A DNA stretch of 21,071 bases from Candidatus Bathyarchaeia archaeon. GTDB taxonomy: Archaea; Thermoproteota; Bathyarchaeia; Bathyarchaeales; Bathycorpusculaceae. Below, one piece after another: positions 3,961 to 16,226 of this stretch. A program made the translations under genes and the position numbers. The stretch spans positions 1 to 21,071 of the forward strand of contig JBMFMB010000019.1 in NCBI GenBank assembly GCA_049970895.1, given 5' to 3'. Below the pieces are notes generated by a model. It made no database searches. It saw only the letters and a program-made list of their open reading frames with translations, and was not told where the DNA came from. Position 1 is the stretch's first letter. Each line of letters begins with the position of its first letter.

Positions 3961-4064
3961 TGGCGGGCCCGCCGGGAATTGAACCCGGGACCCCCGGGTT
4001 TCTTTAACCAAGCGTTTTATGGCTTTAAAAGCCCGGTGCTCTATCCTTACTGAGCTACGGGCCC
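3961..4064 (-). tRNA. tRNA-Lys(UUU) with a 26-nt intron at 37/38 (4000-4025) and encoded CCA
   Basis: GGGCCCG acceptor stem, GCTC/GAGC D-stem, CCGGG-CT-TTT-A[intron]A-CCCGG anticodon arm, TTCAATT T-loop, G-CCA end. Bulge-helix-bulge formed by CTTT/AAAG with two 3-nt bulges. Confidence 0.97.
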
Positions 4065-7859: not shown

Positions 7860-10322
7860 TTAGTCATATTCGCTTATGAAACTTAATTCTGGGTATTGGG
7901 GCACTTGTTTACCAACGCCTTTTTCTGGTAAAATCTCCAGCCTCAAGATTTTGCATGTACCAGTAATATCTTTCTTGTTCTCTTCGAGGATTCTTGCATA
8001 GTCGTTGTTACCGGCGTAAATTTTAACCAGCTTTATTGGTGCATTTAGGGGCTTACGCTTTTCAGCCTTCTCTCTCCTAATTTCCGATATAATTGTTATT
8101 AGCAAGTCACCCTCTTTTTCAGCTCTCTCGTCAATCTTGCTCGCGTCTGCCTGTGGCCATTGAGTTTTGTGGATGCTTTTCTCGCCTATGTGTTCGGCGT
8201 ACATGTGCTGGTAGATTTCCTCTGTTATGTGGGGTGTTATGGGTGCCAACAACTGCAGTATGCGGTATAAAACCTTGTATAGCGTGTGTTGGGCAGCCCT
8301 TCTTTTGGCTTCGCCGTAAACTTCTGGCTTATAGAGGCGGTCTTTCACAGCCTCAATGTATTGGTCGCAGAAAACATGCCACGCGAAGTTGCGGACCTCT
8401 TCGAGGGCTATGTTGAACTGGCACTTTTCTAAAGCCTCCGTAACTCTCTGCGTTAGCCTTTCAGCCTTGCTTAAAATCCACCTGTCCAGCAGTTGAAGTT
8501 CATAATCGCCGTTTCCGGGCTTGTAGTCGGCGAGTTGGCTGCCAACGAAGCGGGCGGCGTTCCAAAGCTTTGTTAGGAAACGCCTACCATACTCCACATC
8601 AGGCCAACGGAATGGAATGTCTGAGCCTGTGGCTCCCCCTCCAGCAGCCCATTGCCTTGCGGCGTCGGCACCATACTTGTCAAGGACTTCTGGTGTCGCC
8701 ACATAGTTCTTTAGGGATTTGCTCATTTTTCTGCCGTCAGCGCCTAGCACCATGCCATTGATTAGGCAGCTTTTGTAGGGCTTCTCATCGAAAAGTGCCA
8801 AGTGCCTAACCATGAGGTAATAGGCCCATGTACGGATAATGTCCACGCCAGACGGATGCAAGTCAGCTGGGAAAAGCCTCCTCCAGTCTTTGCGGTCTGG
8901 CCAGCCCGCGTGTACCGCGCATGTTATGGAAGAGTCCATCCATGTGTCCAGCACATCAGTTTCTGGAACGAACTCGCTGCATCCGCATTTTGGGCAGGCG
9001 TCTATCCTTGGTTTTTCAAGTTTTGGGTCTATTGGAACCCAGCTTTCTTCGGCTAGGATAGTTTCTCCACACTTTTTGCAGTACCATATGGGTATGGGCG
9101 TTGCAAATATGCGTTGGCGGCTTATCACCCAGTCCCAGTCCAGCGAGCGCGCCCAGTCTATTAGGCGATACTTCATGTAATCCGGATGCCAGACAACCTC
9201 GTTGGCTTCCTTCTCCACATGGTCTGTTAGGATGCGGGTTTTCATAAACCACTGTTTTCGCTCCAAAATCTCTATGGGTGTATTGCACCTATCGCAGACA
9301 CCTATCTCCTGCCTTATTGGCTCAACCTTTTCCAAAAGCCCAGCAGCCTTCAGGTCTTTAACTATGGCTTCTTTGGCTTCCTCAACCGTTAAGCCCCTAT
9401 ATTTCCCGCCGTTCTCATTTATCAGCCCATTCTCCGTAAGAATTGTAATCACTGGCAGGTTATGCCGCTTAACTGTGCGGACATCCTCCTTGTCGCCATA
9501 AGTGCAAATCATGACAACACCGGTGCCAAAAGATGGCTCAACACCTTCGTCTGGAATTATTTCCACAACACGGTTAACTATTGGAACGGTTATTCGTTTT
9601 CCAATGTATTGTGTGTAGCGAGTGTCTGTGGGGTTTACGGCTACTGCCACACATGCTGGTATAAATTCTGGACGGGTTGTGGCTATTAGAAGGTGCCCAC
9701 TTCCATCTGCTAATGGAAAACGTATGTAGTGAAGTTTGCCCTCTCGCTCCTCATAATCCACTTCAGCATCCGCAATGGCAGTTTCACATCTTGGACACCA
9801 GTTAACGGGATGCGTTCCCTGATAAATGAAGCCTTTCCGGTACAATATTATGAAGCTCAGCTGGGTTTTCCGCCAATAATCCGGATCCATTGTCCGATAC
9901 TCTGTTGTCCAGTCAACACTGCACCCTAAGCGGATGATGCCCTCCTTCATCATGGCAATATATTTTTCAACAAGCTTCATGCACAAACTGCGAAACTTGT
10001 CCGGTGGAAGGTCTCGCTTACGAATGTTGTGCTCCTTCTCCACTTGCACTTCTATGCCCAAGCCATGGCAGTCCCAACCCTGAGGAAAATAGACATTGTA
10101 ACCCCTCATACGCTTGTATCTGGCAACAATGTCAAAGTAAGTCCAGTTTAGGACATTCCCCATGTGGAACTCGCCGGAAGGATAAGGCGGAGGCGTGTCA
10201 ATGCTGAAAACTGGGCGTTTATAATCTGTCCAGTCGAAGCGGTATATGCCCCAATCTTCCCAAAGCTTCTGCCACTTGCGCTCAATGGCTAATATGTCAA
10301 ACTCTTTGGGCAAAGGCTTCAT
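7860..10322 (-). CDS. valS: Valine--tRNA ligase (archaeal type)
   Basis: IDTPPPYPSG, HMGN (HIGH), GWDCHG, ATTRPE, GTGVVM, DWVISRQR, DTWMDS, KMSKS. Likely start is ATG 10322 (MKPLPKEF). Confidence 0.97.
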   Translation of the reverse strand: MKPLPKEFDILAIERKWQKLWEDWGIYRFDWTDYKRPVFSIDTPPPYPSGEFHMGNVLNWTYFDIVARYKRMRGYNVYFPQGWDCHGLGIEVQVEKEHNIRKRDLPPDKFRSLCMKLVEKYIAMMKEGIIRLGCSVDWTTEYRTMDPDYWRKTQLSFIILYRKGFIYQGTHPVNWCPRCETAIADAEVDYEEREGKLHYIRFPLADGSGHLLIATTRPEFIPACVAVAVNPTDTRYTQYIGKRITVPIVNRVVEIIPDEGVEPSFGTGVVMICTYGDKEDVRTVKRHNLPVITILTENGLINENGGKYRGLTVEEAKEAIVKDLKAAGLLEKVEPIRQEIGVCDRCNTPIEILERKQWFMKTRILTDHVEKEANEVVWHPDYMKYRLIDWARSLDWDWVISRQRIFATPIPIWYCKKCGETILAEESWVPIDPKLEKPRIDACPKCGCSEFVPETDVLDTWMDSSITCAVHAGWPDRKDWRRLFPADLHPSGVDIIRTWAYYLMVRHLALFDEKPYKSCLINGMVLGADGRKMSKSLKNYVATPEVLDKYGADAARQWAAGGGATGSDIPFRWPDVEYGRRFLTKLWNAARFVGSQLADYKPGNGDYELQLLDRWILSKAERLTQRVTEALEKCQFNIALEEVRNFAWHVFCDQYIEAVKDRLYKPEVYGEAKRRAAQHTLYKVLYRILQLLAPITPHITEEIYQHMYAEHIGEKSIHKTQWPQADASKIDERAEKEGDLLITIISEIRREKAEKRKPLNAPIKLVKIYAGNNDYARILEENKKDITGTCKILRLEILPEKGVGKQVPQYPELSFISEYD

Positions 10323-10352
10323 ACAGCAACATCCTAACAAACTTCGACTTTA

Positions 10353-10368
10353 GGAAAGATAAATATAC
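10353..10368 (+). promoter_or_regulatory. Putative BRE/TATA promoter for the riboswitch-thiC transcript, possibly shared with divergent valS
   Basis: GGAAAG-ATAAATATA about 20-25 nt upstream of the aptamer 5' end; only 61 bp separate the valS ATG from the aptamer. Confidence 0.5.
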
Positions 10369-10383
10369 AAGTACATAACAATT

Positions 10384-10495
10384 ACTCCGCCTAAGGGTTT
10401 GGGGGAGCTGGGCGGTGACCCGGCTGAGAGGACCGCTGAGCGTGGTCGACCCCTAGAACCTGATCCGGGTAATGCCGGCGGAGGGAAAATGGAGT
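10384..10495 (+). promoter_or_regulatory. TPP (THI-box) riboswitch aptamer
   Basis: GGGG-AGC, P3 GCTGGG/CCCGGC, conserved CTGAGA (10424-10429), extra GACC/GGTC stem, ACCCC-TAGAACCTGAT-CCGG-GTAATG-CCGG-CGGAGGGA; closing ACTCCG/TGGAGT. Directly upstream of thiC. Confidence 0.95.
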
Positions 10496-10564
10496 GAACA
10501 GAAGTGCCTTCAAACTTCTCTAAAAAATCGATAACATACTATTCCAGTTCTTGGAGGTTTTGGT

Positions 10565-11866
10565 TTGACAACACAAATGGAGGCAGCTAAGAGAGGGCAG
10601 ATAACCGAGGAAATGCGCATAGTCGCCAAAGACGAGGGCGAATCACCTCAAGCTCTTTGCCAGCGCATAGCAGAGGGTACAGTCATAATAACCCGCAACA
10701 TTAAGCGGGAAAACGTTCAGCCAGTTGGGATTGGCAAAGGATTGCGGACAAAGGTTAACGCTAACATTGGCACAAGTCCAGATTTATGCGATTTAAAATT
10801 GGAGATTGAAAAGGCGAGGGTTGCCGTCAAATATGGGGCGGACACAATTATGGATTTAAGCATTGCCGGCGACTTGGATGAAATAAGAAGGTCTATAATT
10901 AGGGCTGTGAATGTGCCCATTGGAACGGTTCCAATTTATCAGGCAGCCATAGAAGTTGCAAAGAAGAAGGGCGCAATAATCCACATGACAGAGGACGACA
11001 TATTCAATATTATTGAGAAACATGCGAAAGATGGTGTTGACTTCATGACCGTCCATTGTGGCGTTACACGGCAGATAGTCGAGAAATTGGCAAGGCATCC
11101 TAGGCTCATGGGGGTTGTAAGCCGTGGAGGAACATTCTTGGCGGCATGGATACTCTATCACAAGAAGGAAAATCCACTTTACGCCAACTACGACTATCTT
11201 CTGGAAATAGCCAAAAAATACGATGTGGCGTTAAGCCTTGGAGACGGCTTAAGACCAGGCTGCATATTCGACTCAACAGACTGGGCTCAAATCCAAGAGC
11301 TACTCACCATAGGGGAACTTGTGGAAAGAACCAGAGCCGCCAACGTGCAAGTCATGGTTGAGGGACCTGGACACTTGCCATTAAACGATGTGGTTGCAAA
11401 CGTTCAGCTTGAAAAATCCATATGCAAGGATGCCCCATTCTACGTGCTCGGACCTGTTGTCACTGAAATTGCTCCAGGATACGACCACATTGTTGGAGCT
11501 ATAGGCGGAGCATTAGCTGGTTTAGCAGGCGCCGATTTTCTGTGCTATCTGACGCCAGCGGAGCATTTGGGCTTGCCAAGCTTGGAGGATGTTAAGGAAG
11601 GTGTAATAGCCACGAGGATTGCCGCCCACGCGGCGGATATTGCAAAGCTTGGAGTCAAAGCAGCTTCACGGGATTTAGCAATGGCGAAGGCTAGGGCAAG
11701 CCTAAACTGGAAGGAGCAGTTTGAAAACGCCATCGACCCGGACAAGGCCAGGAAAATTCACGGGCGGATAAAGCTGAAAAGCCCAGAGACATGCTCCATG
11801 TGCTCTGAATACTGCGCTATAAAAATTTTAAGAGAAGCCTTAAAAGCGGAGGGGCAGTGTCTATGA
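10565..11866 (+). CDS. thiC: Phosphomethylpyrimidine synthase
   Basis: [53 protein letters not shown]-terminal CSMCSEYC Fe-S motif. GGAGG at 10553-10557 before TTG. Confidence 0.96.
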
Positions 11867-13224
11867 AAAGCCAAATCCCAGTGGCAATAACAATTGCTGG
11901 GAGCGACTCCGGTGGCGGAGCTGGAATCCAAGCAGACTTAAAAACTTTTGCAGCTTTGGGCGTTCACGGAACTGTTGCCGTAACGTCTGTTACAGCCCAA
12001 AACACTTACGATGTTAGGGCTATTCAAGACTTAACACCGGAAATTGTCAGCGAGCAGATTAGGGCTGTCGCTGAGGATTTCGGCATTGACGCTGGAAAAA
12101 CGGGTATGCTCCACACAGAGGAAATCATAAAAGCTGTGGCTTCAGAAGTTTCCAAATACAATTTTCCACTGGTTGTAGACCCAGTGATGGTGGCGAAGTC
12201 TGGGGCACCTCTACTAAAGCCTGAAGCCATAAACGCCCTAAAGAAACACTTGCTTCCTTTAGCCACGGTTGTGACTCCTAATAAGTTTGAGGCTGAGAGG
12301 CTTTCAAGCGTGAAGATAAAGAGCCTTAAGGAAGTTGAAGTTGCAGCCGAAGAGATTTCTAAGATGGGACCTAAAGCCGTTGTGGTTAAGGGCGGACATT
12401 TGGAAGGCGTGGAAGTAACAGACATTCTCTATTATAAAGGAAAGTTTTGGCGGTTCACATCTCCAAGGTTGGATGCGAAAACCATACATGGGACTGGATG
12501 CAGTTTTTCGGCAGCAATAGCTGCTGGACTCGCCAGGAAAATGGATGTCCCGGAGGCTGTTAAAAACGCCAAAAATTTTGTAGCCTCGAGCATAAAGTTT
12601 GGCTTGAAAATTGGGAAGGGTTACGGTCCAGTTAATCCTATGGCTCACCTTTACCGCGAAACCTCAAGGTACGAGGTTTTGTTGAATTTGGAGGAAGCCA
12701 AAAACCTTTTAGAAATGCATCCGGAGGTTGCAGCCCTCATCCCAGAGGTGGGCATGAATATTGCCATGGCTGCTAGATATGCTGAAGGTATAGGCGATGT
12801 TGCAGCCATAGATGGAAGAATTGTCAAAACGTTAAGAGGTGTTAAAGCTGCTGGAAATCCAAAGTTTGGGTGTTCCCATCACCTAGCCAAGTACTTGGTT
12901 GAAGTTGTTAGACATGACGAGGATAAGAGGGCGGCAATAAACATAAAATTCTCAGAAGAAACGCTAAAAATTTTGGAGAGCCGTGGCTTAACCATCTCCT
13001 TCTACGACCGTACAAAAGAACCAGAGGAAATAAAAAGGGTTGAGGGGATGACCATACCTTGGGGCGTGAAGGAAGCCATAAAGAATGTTGGAAAAGTGCC
13101 TGACGTGATTTACCACAAGGGCGATTTAGGTAAGGAACCCATGATTGTTGTTTTTGGAGGAGACGCGGTTTCTTTAGCGAAGCTCGCAATAGAAATTGCC
13201 GGAGGGAGAAAAAGCGATGTTTAA
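11863..13224 (+). CDS. thiDN: Bifunctional HMP/HMP-P kinase (ThiD) fused to archaeal thiamine-phosphate synthase (ThiN)
   Basis: [40 protein letters not shown], followed by ThiN motifs [33 protein letters not shown] overlap with the thiC stop. Confidence 0.94.
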
Positions 13225-13447
13225 GTTATATTTGGCGTTTAAGCCAGTTTCTAGCCCATTTCTGCAAGCACTCTTCAGAGCAGAAAACGTAAAGCTTATT
13301 CACACAACATGTTTTCCGCACGACGGGTTTTCCAGTTATGATTTTTCCACAGACTTGACATCGCATGCTAGGCTACCTAATGAGAAAATGGTTTTAAGCA
13401 GTATAAAGCCTTTCCTAAAGGCTGGAGGCAGAATAGGATATGGCTGA
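13217..13447 (+). CDS. Hypothetical 76-aa ORF or gene relic between thiDN and thi4
   Basis: GGAGGGAG upstream of ATG13217; overlaps the thiDN stop and the thi4 start by 8 nt each. No recognisable motif. Confidence 0.3.
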
Positions 13448-14237
13448 GGAAATTAGAGAAGTTGAGGAAGAAGACATAACAAGGGCAATAATTCAGAAGG
13501 CCATGGAAGACTGGATAAAACTAGCGGAAACAGATGTTGTGGTTGTTGGAGCCGGCCCCTCTGGCTTGACTGCGGCTAGACACTTGGCTAAGGCTGGACT
13601 AAAAACAGTTGTTTTCGAAAGAAAGCTCTCCTTTGGTGGTGGGATAGGTGGTGGAGGCATGCAGTTCCATAAAATTGTTGTGCAGTCGCCAGCAGACAAA
13701 ATTCTTCGAGACGTGGGCTGCAAGATTGAGCCCTTTGAGAAGGGGCTTTTCATTGTGGACACGGCTGATATGATGGCTAAGCTGGCTTGTGGAGCTATAG
13801 ATGCTGGAGCAAAAATAATTTTGGGCGTGACGGTTGACGACCTCATATACCGCGATTCGCCTGCAAGAATTGTAGGCGTTGTTGTGCAGTGGACATCCGT
13901 CATAATGGCTGGAATCCACGTTGACCCATTAGCGGTTAAGGCAAAGGCTGTCATTGACTGCACTGGTCATGATGCAGAAGTTCTAGCAGTGGCTTCAAGA
14001 AAAATTCCAGAGCTTGGAATAGCTGTTCAAGGCGAAAAATCTATGTGGTCCTCTCGAGCCGAAAAGCTAACGGTAAAAAATACTAGGGAAATCTGCCCTG
14101 GACTTTTTGCTGCCGGCATGGCTGTCGCCGCCGTAGACCAGGCTCCACGAATGGGCCCGATTTTTGGCGGCATGCTGCTCAGCGGCGAAAAAGTTGCAAA
14201 ATTAGTCATTGAGAAGCTTAAGGGCAAGGGCGCCTAA
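13440..14237 (+). CDS. thi4: Sulfide-dependent adenosine diphosphate thiazole synthase (non-Cys Thi4)
   Basis: [24 protein letters not shown] (His at the position of the suicide Cys), [20 protein letters not shown]. Confidence 0.95.
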
Positions 14238-14242
14238 TATTC

Positions 14243-14374
14243 ATGGATTTTTGCGGCATTTGTAAAAGAAAAATTGCAAAATATACTTGCCGAAGATGTG
14301 GCAGACAGGTTTGCAGAGACTGCTATTTCCATCATGGAATTTGCGTTGAATGTGCCGAACTTCTAGGAAAGTAG
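14243..14374 (+). CDS. 43-aa zinc-finger microprotein (four CxxC, zf-HIT-like), absent from the ORF track
   Basis: MDFCGICKRKIAKYTCRRCGRQVCRDCYFHHGICVECAELLGK*. Starts 5 nt after the thi4 stop; overlaps the fdhD 3' end by 12 nt. Confidence 0.8.
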   Translation: MDFCGICKRKIAKYTCRRCGRQVCRDCYFHHGICVECAELLGK

Positions 14375-15162: not shown

Positions 15163-16041
15163 CTATTTTTTCAATTCTGAAAGCACAAAGTCAACTATTG
15201 CGTCGGCAATGTTAATCCGAGTGACGGATTGTAAGCCACGCCATCCAGGCTGGCTGTTAACCTCAACTATCAATGGTCCTCTTGGGCTTTCCAGCATATC
15301 CACACCTGCAATCTTACATTTTATTAGTTGGGCGGATTTTACGGCTAACTCTTCCAGTTGGCTGTCCAGCTTTATTGGTTCTGGGCGGGCTCCTTGGCTA
15401 TAGTTGGTTTTCCAGCTTTGGGCAACGCGGCGCATGGCGGCAACAACACGGTCACCAACAACAAACGCTCTAATGTCTGAACAACCATGGGGAACAAACT
15501 CTTGAATGTAGATTACGCCATGATAGAAGGTTATAGCCCTAAAGGCTGTATAAGCCACTTCAGGGTCTGTTATGCGTGTTGAGCCAATCCCCCTAGAGCC
15601 GAAAATGGGCTTTACAACCACGTCTCCGCCAAGCTCATGAAAAGCCTTTAACGCTTCGTCAGCATTTTCCGTGACAGCGGTTCTTGGCACCGGCATGCCA
15701 GCGTCTTCCAGAATCGCCAACAAATCGTACTTGTCAACACAGTGTTCAATGGCTTCTGGCGGATTAATAACATAAAAGCCGAGCCTTTCAAGCCTATAAA
15801 GCAAGTCCATACGGAAAACAATCTCCTCCAAAGAGCCCCGCCCAATTGGGCGGATTATTAGGGCATCTAAATCCTTTAGGATGTCGACGTTCCTGACGTT
15901 TAAGTATGGCTTATATCCAACACGGGCAACAAGCCATGGAAAACTAAAGCAAACATGAGGTATTCCACGCCTAGACAGTGCCTCACGAAGCTGAGTCGAA
16001 CTATAAGCATTCGAGTTTCGCGTAACAATTCCAAACTTCAA
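15163..16041 (-). CDS. RimK-family ATP-grasp alpha-L-glutamate ligase (tetrahydromethanopterin glutamate ligase/MptN-like)
   Basis: RPIGRGSLEEIVFRMD, VVKPIFGSRG, QEFV, DIRAFVVG, WKTNYSQG, GVD, EVNSQPGW. Likely start is TTG 16041 (MKFGIVTRN). Confidence 0.88.
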   Translation of the reverse strand: MKFGIVTRNSNAYSSTQLREALSRRGIPHVCFSFPWLVARVGYKPYLNVRNVDILKDLDALIIRPIGRGSLEEIVFRMDLLYRLERLGFYVINPPEAIEHCVDKYDLLAILEDAGMPVPRTAVTENADEALKAFHELGGDVVVKPIFGSRGIGSTRITDPEVAYTAFRAITFYHGVIYIQEFVPHGCSDIRAFVVGDRVVAAMRRVAQSWKTNYSQGARPEPIKLDSQLEELAVKSAQLIKCKIAGVDMLESPRGPLIVEVNSQPGWRGLQSVTRINIADAIVDFVLSELKK

Positions 16042-16226
16042 ATTGACCGCCTTTAACAGCCTACTAAAACGAGAAAAGCTCCACACAGAACTTTAAAGTT
16101 TCCCATAAGAGCTGTTTGCTCATTTGCGCGCATGAAGCCTATGCCCACCATTTCTTATGTAGATATGCTTCCGACTTTAATGTCTCCTAACGGAAAGTTT
16201 GCGGCTTAGCAAATGCAACCATTCTT

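Follow-up and report, generated by a model that had tools for sequence, protein, structure and literature searches.

The thiC-thiDN messenger RNA of a hot-spring member of the Bathyarchaeia probably begins with a thiamine pyrophosphate (TPP) riboswitch, which would most likely lower thiamine synthesis when TPP is high, acting on translation by way of a short upstream open reading frame (uORF). The element was found in a stretch of 21,071 nucleotides (nt) of a Candidatus Bathyarchaeia archaeon, hereafter the window (contig JBMFMB010000019.1 of assembly GCA_049970895.1, positions 1 to 21,071 of the forward strand). Bathyarchaeia is an uncultured, globally abundant class. The element belongs to the known TPP riboswitch family, and it is the distribution of its hosts that is notable. 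Score, covariation and motifs identify it as a bona fide TPP aptamer; that it binds TPP is predicted from its sequence. The aptamer and the motifs read within it are as follows.

10391-10503, plus strand: TPP riboswitch aptamer (RF00059), 70 bits, with covariation across 41 Bathyarchaeia aptamers
10424-10429, plus strand: CTGAGA motif
10458-10464, plus strand: ACCTGAT motif
10465-10478, plus strand: CCGG-GTAATG-CCGG, forming helix P5
10480-10486, plus strand: GGAGGGA motif

With Rfam release 15 the RF00059 match scored 70.0 bits (E 3.3e-12) against a gathering score of 54.3 bits and covered the full model, positions 1-105. The complete aptamer proposed in the preliminary description of this DNA was thus recovered, and all four motifs quoted there were located, at 10424-10486. 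The aptamer lies on the same (plus) strand as thiC, 62 nt upstream of it, and is the sole RF00059 match in the 1.34-Mb, 97%-complete genome; between 13100 and 13600 there was no second TPP-like element, even at E<=1. The motifs CUGAGA and ACCUGAUC..UAAU..GCG.AGGGA align to the RF00059 consensus, and their columns are invariant in the 41 aptamers. Which nucleotides of the aptamer contact TPP is known from the literature. When the 41 aptamers were folded together with RNAalifold, 25 pairs were obtained, nine of them with two-sided changes, and compensatory changes occurred in P2, P3 and P5. The P3 pairs show 5-11 two-sided changes each, and at one P5 pair 22 of the sequences have GC and 18 have AU.

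The aptamer is followed by two thiamine biosynthesis genes and preceded by a divergent valS gene, with the following features at the promoter, in the leader and beyond it.

7860-10322, minus strand: valS (valine--tRNA ligase), NF009687 1020 bits, divergent from the riboswitch RNA
10353-10367, plus strand: promoter-like B recognition element (BRE; GGAAAG, 10353-58) and TATA box (ATAAATATA, 10359-67), by sequence
10480-10484, plus strand: GGAGG (SD1, a Shine-Dalgarno-type ribosome site), overlapping the 3' strand of P4, 9 nt before the uORF start
10494-10523, plus strand: nine-codon uORF, GTG to TAA (MNRSAFKLL*), starting at the thiT start position of sister genomes
10500-10519, plus strand: hairpin AGAAGU / ACUUCU within the uORF (10500-05 with 10514-19), loop GCCUUCAA, from an alignment of 18 leaders
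10553-10557, plus strand: GGAGG (SD2), the Shine-Dalgarno (SD) sequence of thiC, 7 nt before its TTG start, conserved in leader alignments
10565-11866, plus strand: thiC (phosphomethylpyrimidine synthase), PF01964 651 bits, TIGR00190 654 bits
11857-13224, plus strand: thiDN (kinase for hydroxymethylpyrimidine (HMP) and its phosphate (HMP-P), fused to ThiN thiamine-phosphate synthase), PF08543 326 bits, PF10120 202 bits, NF006346 625 bits

The BRE/TATA-like box lies about 30 nt upstream of the aptamer, and in relatives whose upstream sequence is otherwise unrelated an A/T box is found equally far from helix P1 in the alignment, in agreement with the archaeal TATA-like box named in the preliminary description. 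Archaeal TATA boxes are usually centred near -26/-27 from the start of transcription. The predicted start is therefore at about 10390-10393, at the 5' edge of P1, and the RNA would begin essentially at P1. A scan for bacterial promoters and terminators gave nothing above chance near the leader. The conserved start of valS is ATG 10322; the longest open reading frame (ORF) would extend to 10340, and in tblastn the relatives begin to align at residue 7 of that long frame, which is ATG 10322. Between valS and the aptamer, the segment GACTTTAGGAAAGATAAATATAC (10323-10370) is highly conserved across the family. Its spacing suggests a pair of promoters placed back to back: CCTAAAGT, read on the minus strand, would serve valS with almost no leader, and ATAAATAT, read on the plus strand, would serve the riboswitch RNA.

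The way in which the aptamer may act is suggested by related loci in which it precedes the importer gene thiT. In these thiT-type loci the same GGAGG stands 8-10 nt before the thiT start codon, in the order GGAGG, 3' strand of P1, start codon, e.g. GGAGGGAAAGACC-GTG. Based on the 49 aptamer loci compared, the start codon of the gene falls within the 3' tail of the Rfam match in about 28. As ribosome site and start codon lie within or just after the aptamer, no separate expression platform would be needed, and folding would bury the ribosome site. In the lineage of the window the position of the thiT start codon would have been reused to open the nine-codon uORF before thiC, the stop codon of which (TAA, 10521-10523) lies 41 nt before thiC. 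The mechanism that we infer, from transcription start and TPP binding to the direction of regulation and the link between uORF and thiC, would be that TPP locks the aptamer, so that both the GGAGG of SD1 and the start codon after P1 are buried. Translation of the uORF would be repressed, and thiC would be affected in turn, either because its own ribosome site is unmasked, or because the transcript is protected, when the uORF is translated. It is possible that the uORF relays the TPP signal to thiC in this way.

Related leaders were compared for signs of such a relay. Of 15 class-I thiC leaders, 13 retain the nine-codon frame, which starts with GTG, TTG or ATG and has its stop in place, and a variant leader group has a 14-codon uORF in all three members. 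In a second leader class the uORFs are of variable length and some end 1 nt before thiC. In the class-II leaders L034, L044 and L080, a uORF of 24-27 codons starts beside the aptamer and stops 1 nt short of the thiC ATG, and this spacing is the geometry of a putative termination-reinitiation coupling. Within the uORF of the window, the hairpin loop contains CCUUC (10507-11), which is complementary to the GGAGG of the thiC SD. Across the 18 aligned leaders the hairpin and the helix CCUUCAA : UUGGAGG are each paired in about 87% of cells. The hairpin has some two-sided changes, and its covariation score was reached by 2 of 500 shuffles, which gives it weak to moderate support.

Several observations weigh against this reading of the aptamer and its leader. 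The P1 helix of the window is weak: of the five model pairs between GGUUU (10396-10400) and AAAUG (10487-10491) two are non-canonical, and there are 4 pairs, 3 of them A-U. The two remaining class-I leaders have lost the frame, one through a frameshift and one through lack of a start; the uORF peptide is poorly conserved, and an open frame of nine codons is not improbable by chance. The proposed leader helices barely exceed shuffled controls. When the aptamer was enforced in the fold model, the probability of SD2 being unpaired went down in 12 of 18 leaders, up in 5 and was the same in 1, mostly by small amounts. SD2 was predicted to pair mainly with the uORF region in 8 leaders, with the spacer in 4 and with the 5' end in 3, and it was not freed when the uORF region was kept single-stranded. 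The fold models thus favour no one switch. RNAalifold also paired CUCC (10385-88) with either the thiC SD or GGAG 10491-94; this did not rise above controls and was set aside, since the expected start at about 10390-93 probably excludes CUCC from the transcript.

The same fold results bear on a classical direct switch that would dispense with the uORF, which we consider unlikely. TPP would here free an anti-SD (CCUUC 10507-11 or CUUCUC 10515-20) to pair with the thiC SD at 10553-57, while in its absence segments of the unfolded aptamer that contain GGAG would sequester the anti-SD. The leader does hold three GGAG and several CUYC motifs, the pairing CCUUCAA : UUGGAGG recurs among the 18 leaders as given above, and the loss of SD2 accessibility in most of them upon enforcing the aptamer has the expected sign. 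However, the changes in accessibility are small, the partner of SD2 is inconsistent, the covariation is little above that of controls, and such a direct switch leaves unexplained why a start codon has been kept at the thiT position.

Control could also be exerted on the transcript itself, which is less likely still. Here the folded aptamer would block ribosome loading, and the untranslated leader would be terminated early, or degraded, before thiC is reached, at a U-rich tract before SD2 or through the archaeal termination factor aCPSF1/FttA, in analogy to bacterial Rho-dependent riboswitches. Archaea couple transcription to translation, and FttA causes polarity. Most class-I relatives have a run of 4-5 T directly before SD2. 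The window, however, has TTCTT instead of a run of five T, and a scan for terminator-like sequences gave no candidate between aptamer and thiC. A translational effect mediated by the uORF remains the reading that we prefer.

A likely origin of this arrangement is suggested by comparison within the window's own family, here f1. The aptamer lies directly upstream of thiC in all nine f1 genomes with ThiC and directly upstream of thiT in all eleven with ThiT; genome G018 alone has both genes, each with a separate aptamer. No ThiT was found in the genome of the window, and in the thiT-type genomes examined, two of them 97-98% complete, neither ThiC nor ThiN was found. Within the window's genus both thiT-type and thiC-type units adjoin valS. 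From the start of valS through the aptamer the window is 94-95% identical to thiT-type and 93-94% to thiC-type congeners, whereas over the 70 nt after GGAGGGA the identity is 59-66% to the thiT-type and 81-89% to the thiC-type. The breakpoint of the swap is the 3' edge of the aptamer, and recombination between two aptamer copies in a G018-like ancestor would account for it. The two aptamers of G018 (L135 = G018:C51 and L007 = G018:C22) share the same sequence along most of the core. One stands before a thiT gene next to valS, the other before thiC at a different site, and the pair is a plausible substrate for such recombination.

A swap of this kind raises the question whether the aptamer is simply left over from the control of thiT and has ceased to regulate thiC-thiDN. 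P1 is indeed weaker in the thiC-type (GGUUU/AAAUG) than in the thiT-type congeners, which have a perfect 5-bp P1 (GGUCU/AGACC), and thiC has a separate SD, at a distance of 70 nt. Nevertheless, such a relic is highly improbable. The core is intact, scoring 60-75 bits and above threshold in all 27 thiC loci that carry it, these loci span several genera with ThiC identities of 80-92%, and G018 keeps separate aptamers for thiT and thiC. A useless structured leader of 110 nt would not be expected to persist so widely.

A wider interpretation may be offered tentatively. In Bathyarchaeia, promoter, aptamer and ribosome site could form a compact, portable cassette, present in about 70% of the sampled genomes, in which recombination at the 3' edge of the aptamer swaps importer and synthesis genes and the former importer start becomes that of a gated uORF, through which thiC receives the TPP signal. 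If this is true, the riboswitch-gated uORF would be a kind of expression platform that has not been described in TPP riboswitches, control by riboswitch would be normal and not exceptional in a major archaeal class, and the downstream swap would separate thiamine-dependent strains, having the importer, from self-sufficient ones with de novo synthesis.

The aptamer is common in the class. RF00059 was found in 26 of 41 genomes (that of the window and 40 relatives), in 19 of the 24 genomes of f1 with G000 left out, and in 107 of 151 class genomes, each at least 80% complete, with 106 over the cut-off. Many of the class genomes have 2-4 copies. Some families in the class sample were uniformly or nearly positive (33/33, 20/20, 14/15 and 7/7) and others uniformly negative (0/11, 0/4 and 0/4). 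In a sample of the phylum RF00059 occurred in 31 of 151 genomes, and the 21 matches outside the class all belonged to four families (9/14, 8/15, 2/5 and 2/3). The preliminary description had stressed the rarity of riboswitches in archaea; within this class the aptamer is not unusual.

For the 49 best-scoring aptamers with loci returned, the first ORF of at least 70 amino acids downstream was classed by Pfam. It encoded ThiT (Thia_YuaJ) in 23 cases, ThiC in 10, ThiW in 8, an NCS1 permease in 3 and ThiDN in 2, with 3 unclassified, so that 46 of the 49 aptamers precede a thiamine-related gene. From the ThiT, ThiW and NCS1 counts it follows that most Bathyarchaeia TPP aptamers stand before transporters, as in Thermoplasmatales, and the contrast drawn earlier between this locus and the classic transporter cases does not hold for the class. 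Before thiC the aptamer was present in 27 of the 80 nearest thiC loci, and in groups of falling ThiC identity in 19/20, 7/20, 1/20 and 0/20; in all 27 the ThiC is at least 80% identical to that of the window. None of the thiC loci labelled Brockarchaeota or Asgard (Promethearchaeota, Helarchaeota, Hodarchaeota) had an aptamer, although the upstream flank is short in a few loci. Only one sub-lineage of the class has the aptamer before thiC. RNA control of the biosynthetic genes as a trait of the lineage, which had been suggested earlier, therefore applies to this sub-lineage and not to the class as a whole.

A ThiR protein regulon of archaeal thiamine genes was reportedly described by Rodionov and co-workers in 2017. 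It has the same targets as are found here (thiC, thiDN or thiD, thi4 and transporters), also in archaea. ThiR is a protein repressor with a DNA-binding domain and a ThiN-like domain. The ThiN model PF10120 matches only ThiDN in the window's genome, and among the 41 genomes there was no second ThiN-domain gene, with at most one PF10120 match per genome. The matches always lie in an open frame of 416-500 amino acids (ThiDN), apart from two cut by contig ends. As ThiR carries a ThiN-like domain and each genome has at most one ThiN, no ThiR-type regulator is apparent, and the locus differs in this from the ThiR regulon, as the preliminary description had led us to expect. If the riboswitch is functional, it offers a simple RNA explanation of how thiamine is controlled in genomes in which a ThiR-like regulator was not found. 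Seven genomes of the same order outside f1 (G025, G026, G028, G034, G035, G037 and G038) have ThiC, some of them also ThiT; the searches of these seven gave no TPP aptamer and no second ThiN-domain gene.

The extent of the transcript behind the switch was considered next to the genes that follow thiDN.

13226-13366, minus strand: gene for a TRASH-domain zinc-ribbon protein of 46 amino acids, PF08394 28.6 bits, cut-off 27
13392-13409, strand not assigned: A/T-rich boxes TTTTAAGC and GTATAAAG, by sequence, between the TRASH gene and thi4
13440-14237, plus strand: thi4 (sulfide-dependent ADP-thiazole synthase), TIGR00292 336 bits, PF01946 278 bits

Profile matches agree with the preliminary description in naming thiC, an archaeal-type ThiDN and Thi4. 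The genes thiC and thiDN overlap by 10 nt, while thiDN and thi4 are separated by a gap of 215 nt that is as conserved as coding sequence. The minus strand of this gap (13229-13366) encodes the protein of 46 amino acids, tail to tail with thiDN, which is nearly invariant in 10 of 12 relatives with a long gap, the exceptions being L026, with a frameshift, and L046, with deletions. Differences in the gap at codon positions 1, 2 and 3 of the plus-strand ORF number 190, 113 and 101; position 1 of that strand is the antisense wobble position, so the substitutions fit a minus-strand gene. The plus-strand ORF itself (13196-13447, 83 amino acids) was rejected as a gene, as it matches no Pfam family, has 12-37 non-synonymous against 1-6 synonymous codon changes, and has its substitutions peaking at codon position 1. 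The A/T boxes are kept in relatives, including one with a short gap, and could be candidate divergent promoters.

With a gene on the opposite strand and promoter-like boxes intervening, only thiC-thiDN is clearly behind the switch. The three genes do not form one contiguous unit on a single strand free of an intervening gene or promoter, and the operon of thiC, thiDN and thi4 described earlier is thus upheld for the first two genes and not for thi4, which is probably transcribed from its own promoter and may also receive read-through from thiC-thiDN. ThiL is encoded on another contig, without an aptamer. Thi4 is iron- and sulfide-dependent. The stand-alone TRASH gene (CxxCG...FCSxxC), which encodes a metal-binding protein, lies between thiDN and thi4 in most close relatives and is absent from the short-gap loci L029 and L033.

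Archaea are described in passages of McCown et al. (2017; PMC5473149) as using few riboswitch classes, sparingly, mainly those for TPP and fluoride, and the riboswitch counts given there are 79 for Euryarchaeota, 6 for Crenarchaeota and 1 each for Korarchaeota and Thaumarchaeota. A passage of bioRxiv 10.1101/538918, citing Rodionov 2002, places the TPP elements of Thermoplasmatales upstream of putative transporters. As far as these passages go, the switches of Thermoplasma and Ferroplasma resemble the present one in being RF00059 elements in the archaeal 5' leader of a thiamine-related gene; they precede genes for multi-transmembrane transporters, as most Bathyarchaeia copies also precede transporters, whereas the window comes from Bathyarchaeia of the Thermoproteota and has the biosynthetic thiC-thiDN downstream. 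The E. coli thiC riboswitch, which couples translational control with a pause site according to the abstract of PMC5234074, has the same aptamer family before the same gene, and repression by TPP is expected in both. The window differs in that GGAGG and a start codon within or just behind the aptamer begin a short uORF, in that it has a promoter of archaeal BRE/TATA type, and in that P1 probably lies at the very start of its transcript. The crcB fluoride riboswitch of Thermococcus kodakarensis is named in a passage of PMC8241225 as the sole natural archaeal riboswitch tested experimentally; like the present element on the preferred reading, it is a natural archaeal riboswitch with a presumed action on translation, and it differs in ligand and fold from the predicted TPP switch described here.

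Full-text literature searches on riboswitches, and on thiamine and ThiC, in Bathyarchaeia returned nothing relevant. Bathyarchaeota matches may have been listed earlier in Rfam species lists, in supplements, in genome annotation or in papers on ThiR or archaeal riboswitches, and absence from print is not claimed. The occurrence of a standard TPP aptamer in 107 of 151 sampled genomes of one class stands against the usual picture of sparse archaeal riboswitches. If functional, a compact archaeal riboswitch with the ribosome site inside the aptamer would be a possible genetic tool for thermophilic archaea, and the gene downstream of it would mark thiamine-making and thiamine-importing Bathyarchaeia strains.

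The assignment of the contig to Bathyarchaeia, made in the preliminary description, agrees with its nearest ThiC loci. Among the 80 nearest in GTDB species genomes, the closest are from metagenome-assembled genomes (MAGs) labelled Bathyarchaeia or Bathyarchaeota, many of them from hot springs, at 86-92% identity. The order valS-aptamer-thiC-thiDN-thi4 is repeated in many separately named MAG records, which argues against a chimera, and the DNA sequencing runs containing the locus are labelled hot springs metagenome; no RNA run containing it was found. A tRNA gene at 3964-4064 on the minus strand has a 27-nt intron in the anticodon loop (Rfam, 59.2 bits); ARAGORN at its default setting reported no tRNA and missed this one. 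With the titles of the relatives, the repeated synteny, the tRNA intron and the hot-spring runs, a bacterial or chimeric origin is very unlikely.

Two further genes of the window may be mentioned. Directly after thi4 a Cys-rich ORF of 43 amino acids (14243-14374, plus strand) overlaps the 3' end of the convergent fdhD and has a weak zf-HIT/B-box-like match (24.0 bits, cut-off 24.7). At 15163-16086 on the minus strand there is an ATP-grasp ligase of the RimK family, the best match of which is NF040720, the model for tetrahydromethanopterin:alpha-L-glutamate ligase, at 266 bits against a cut-off of 350.

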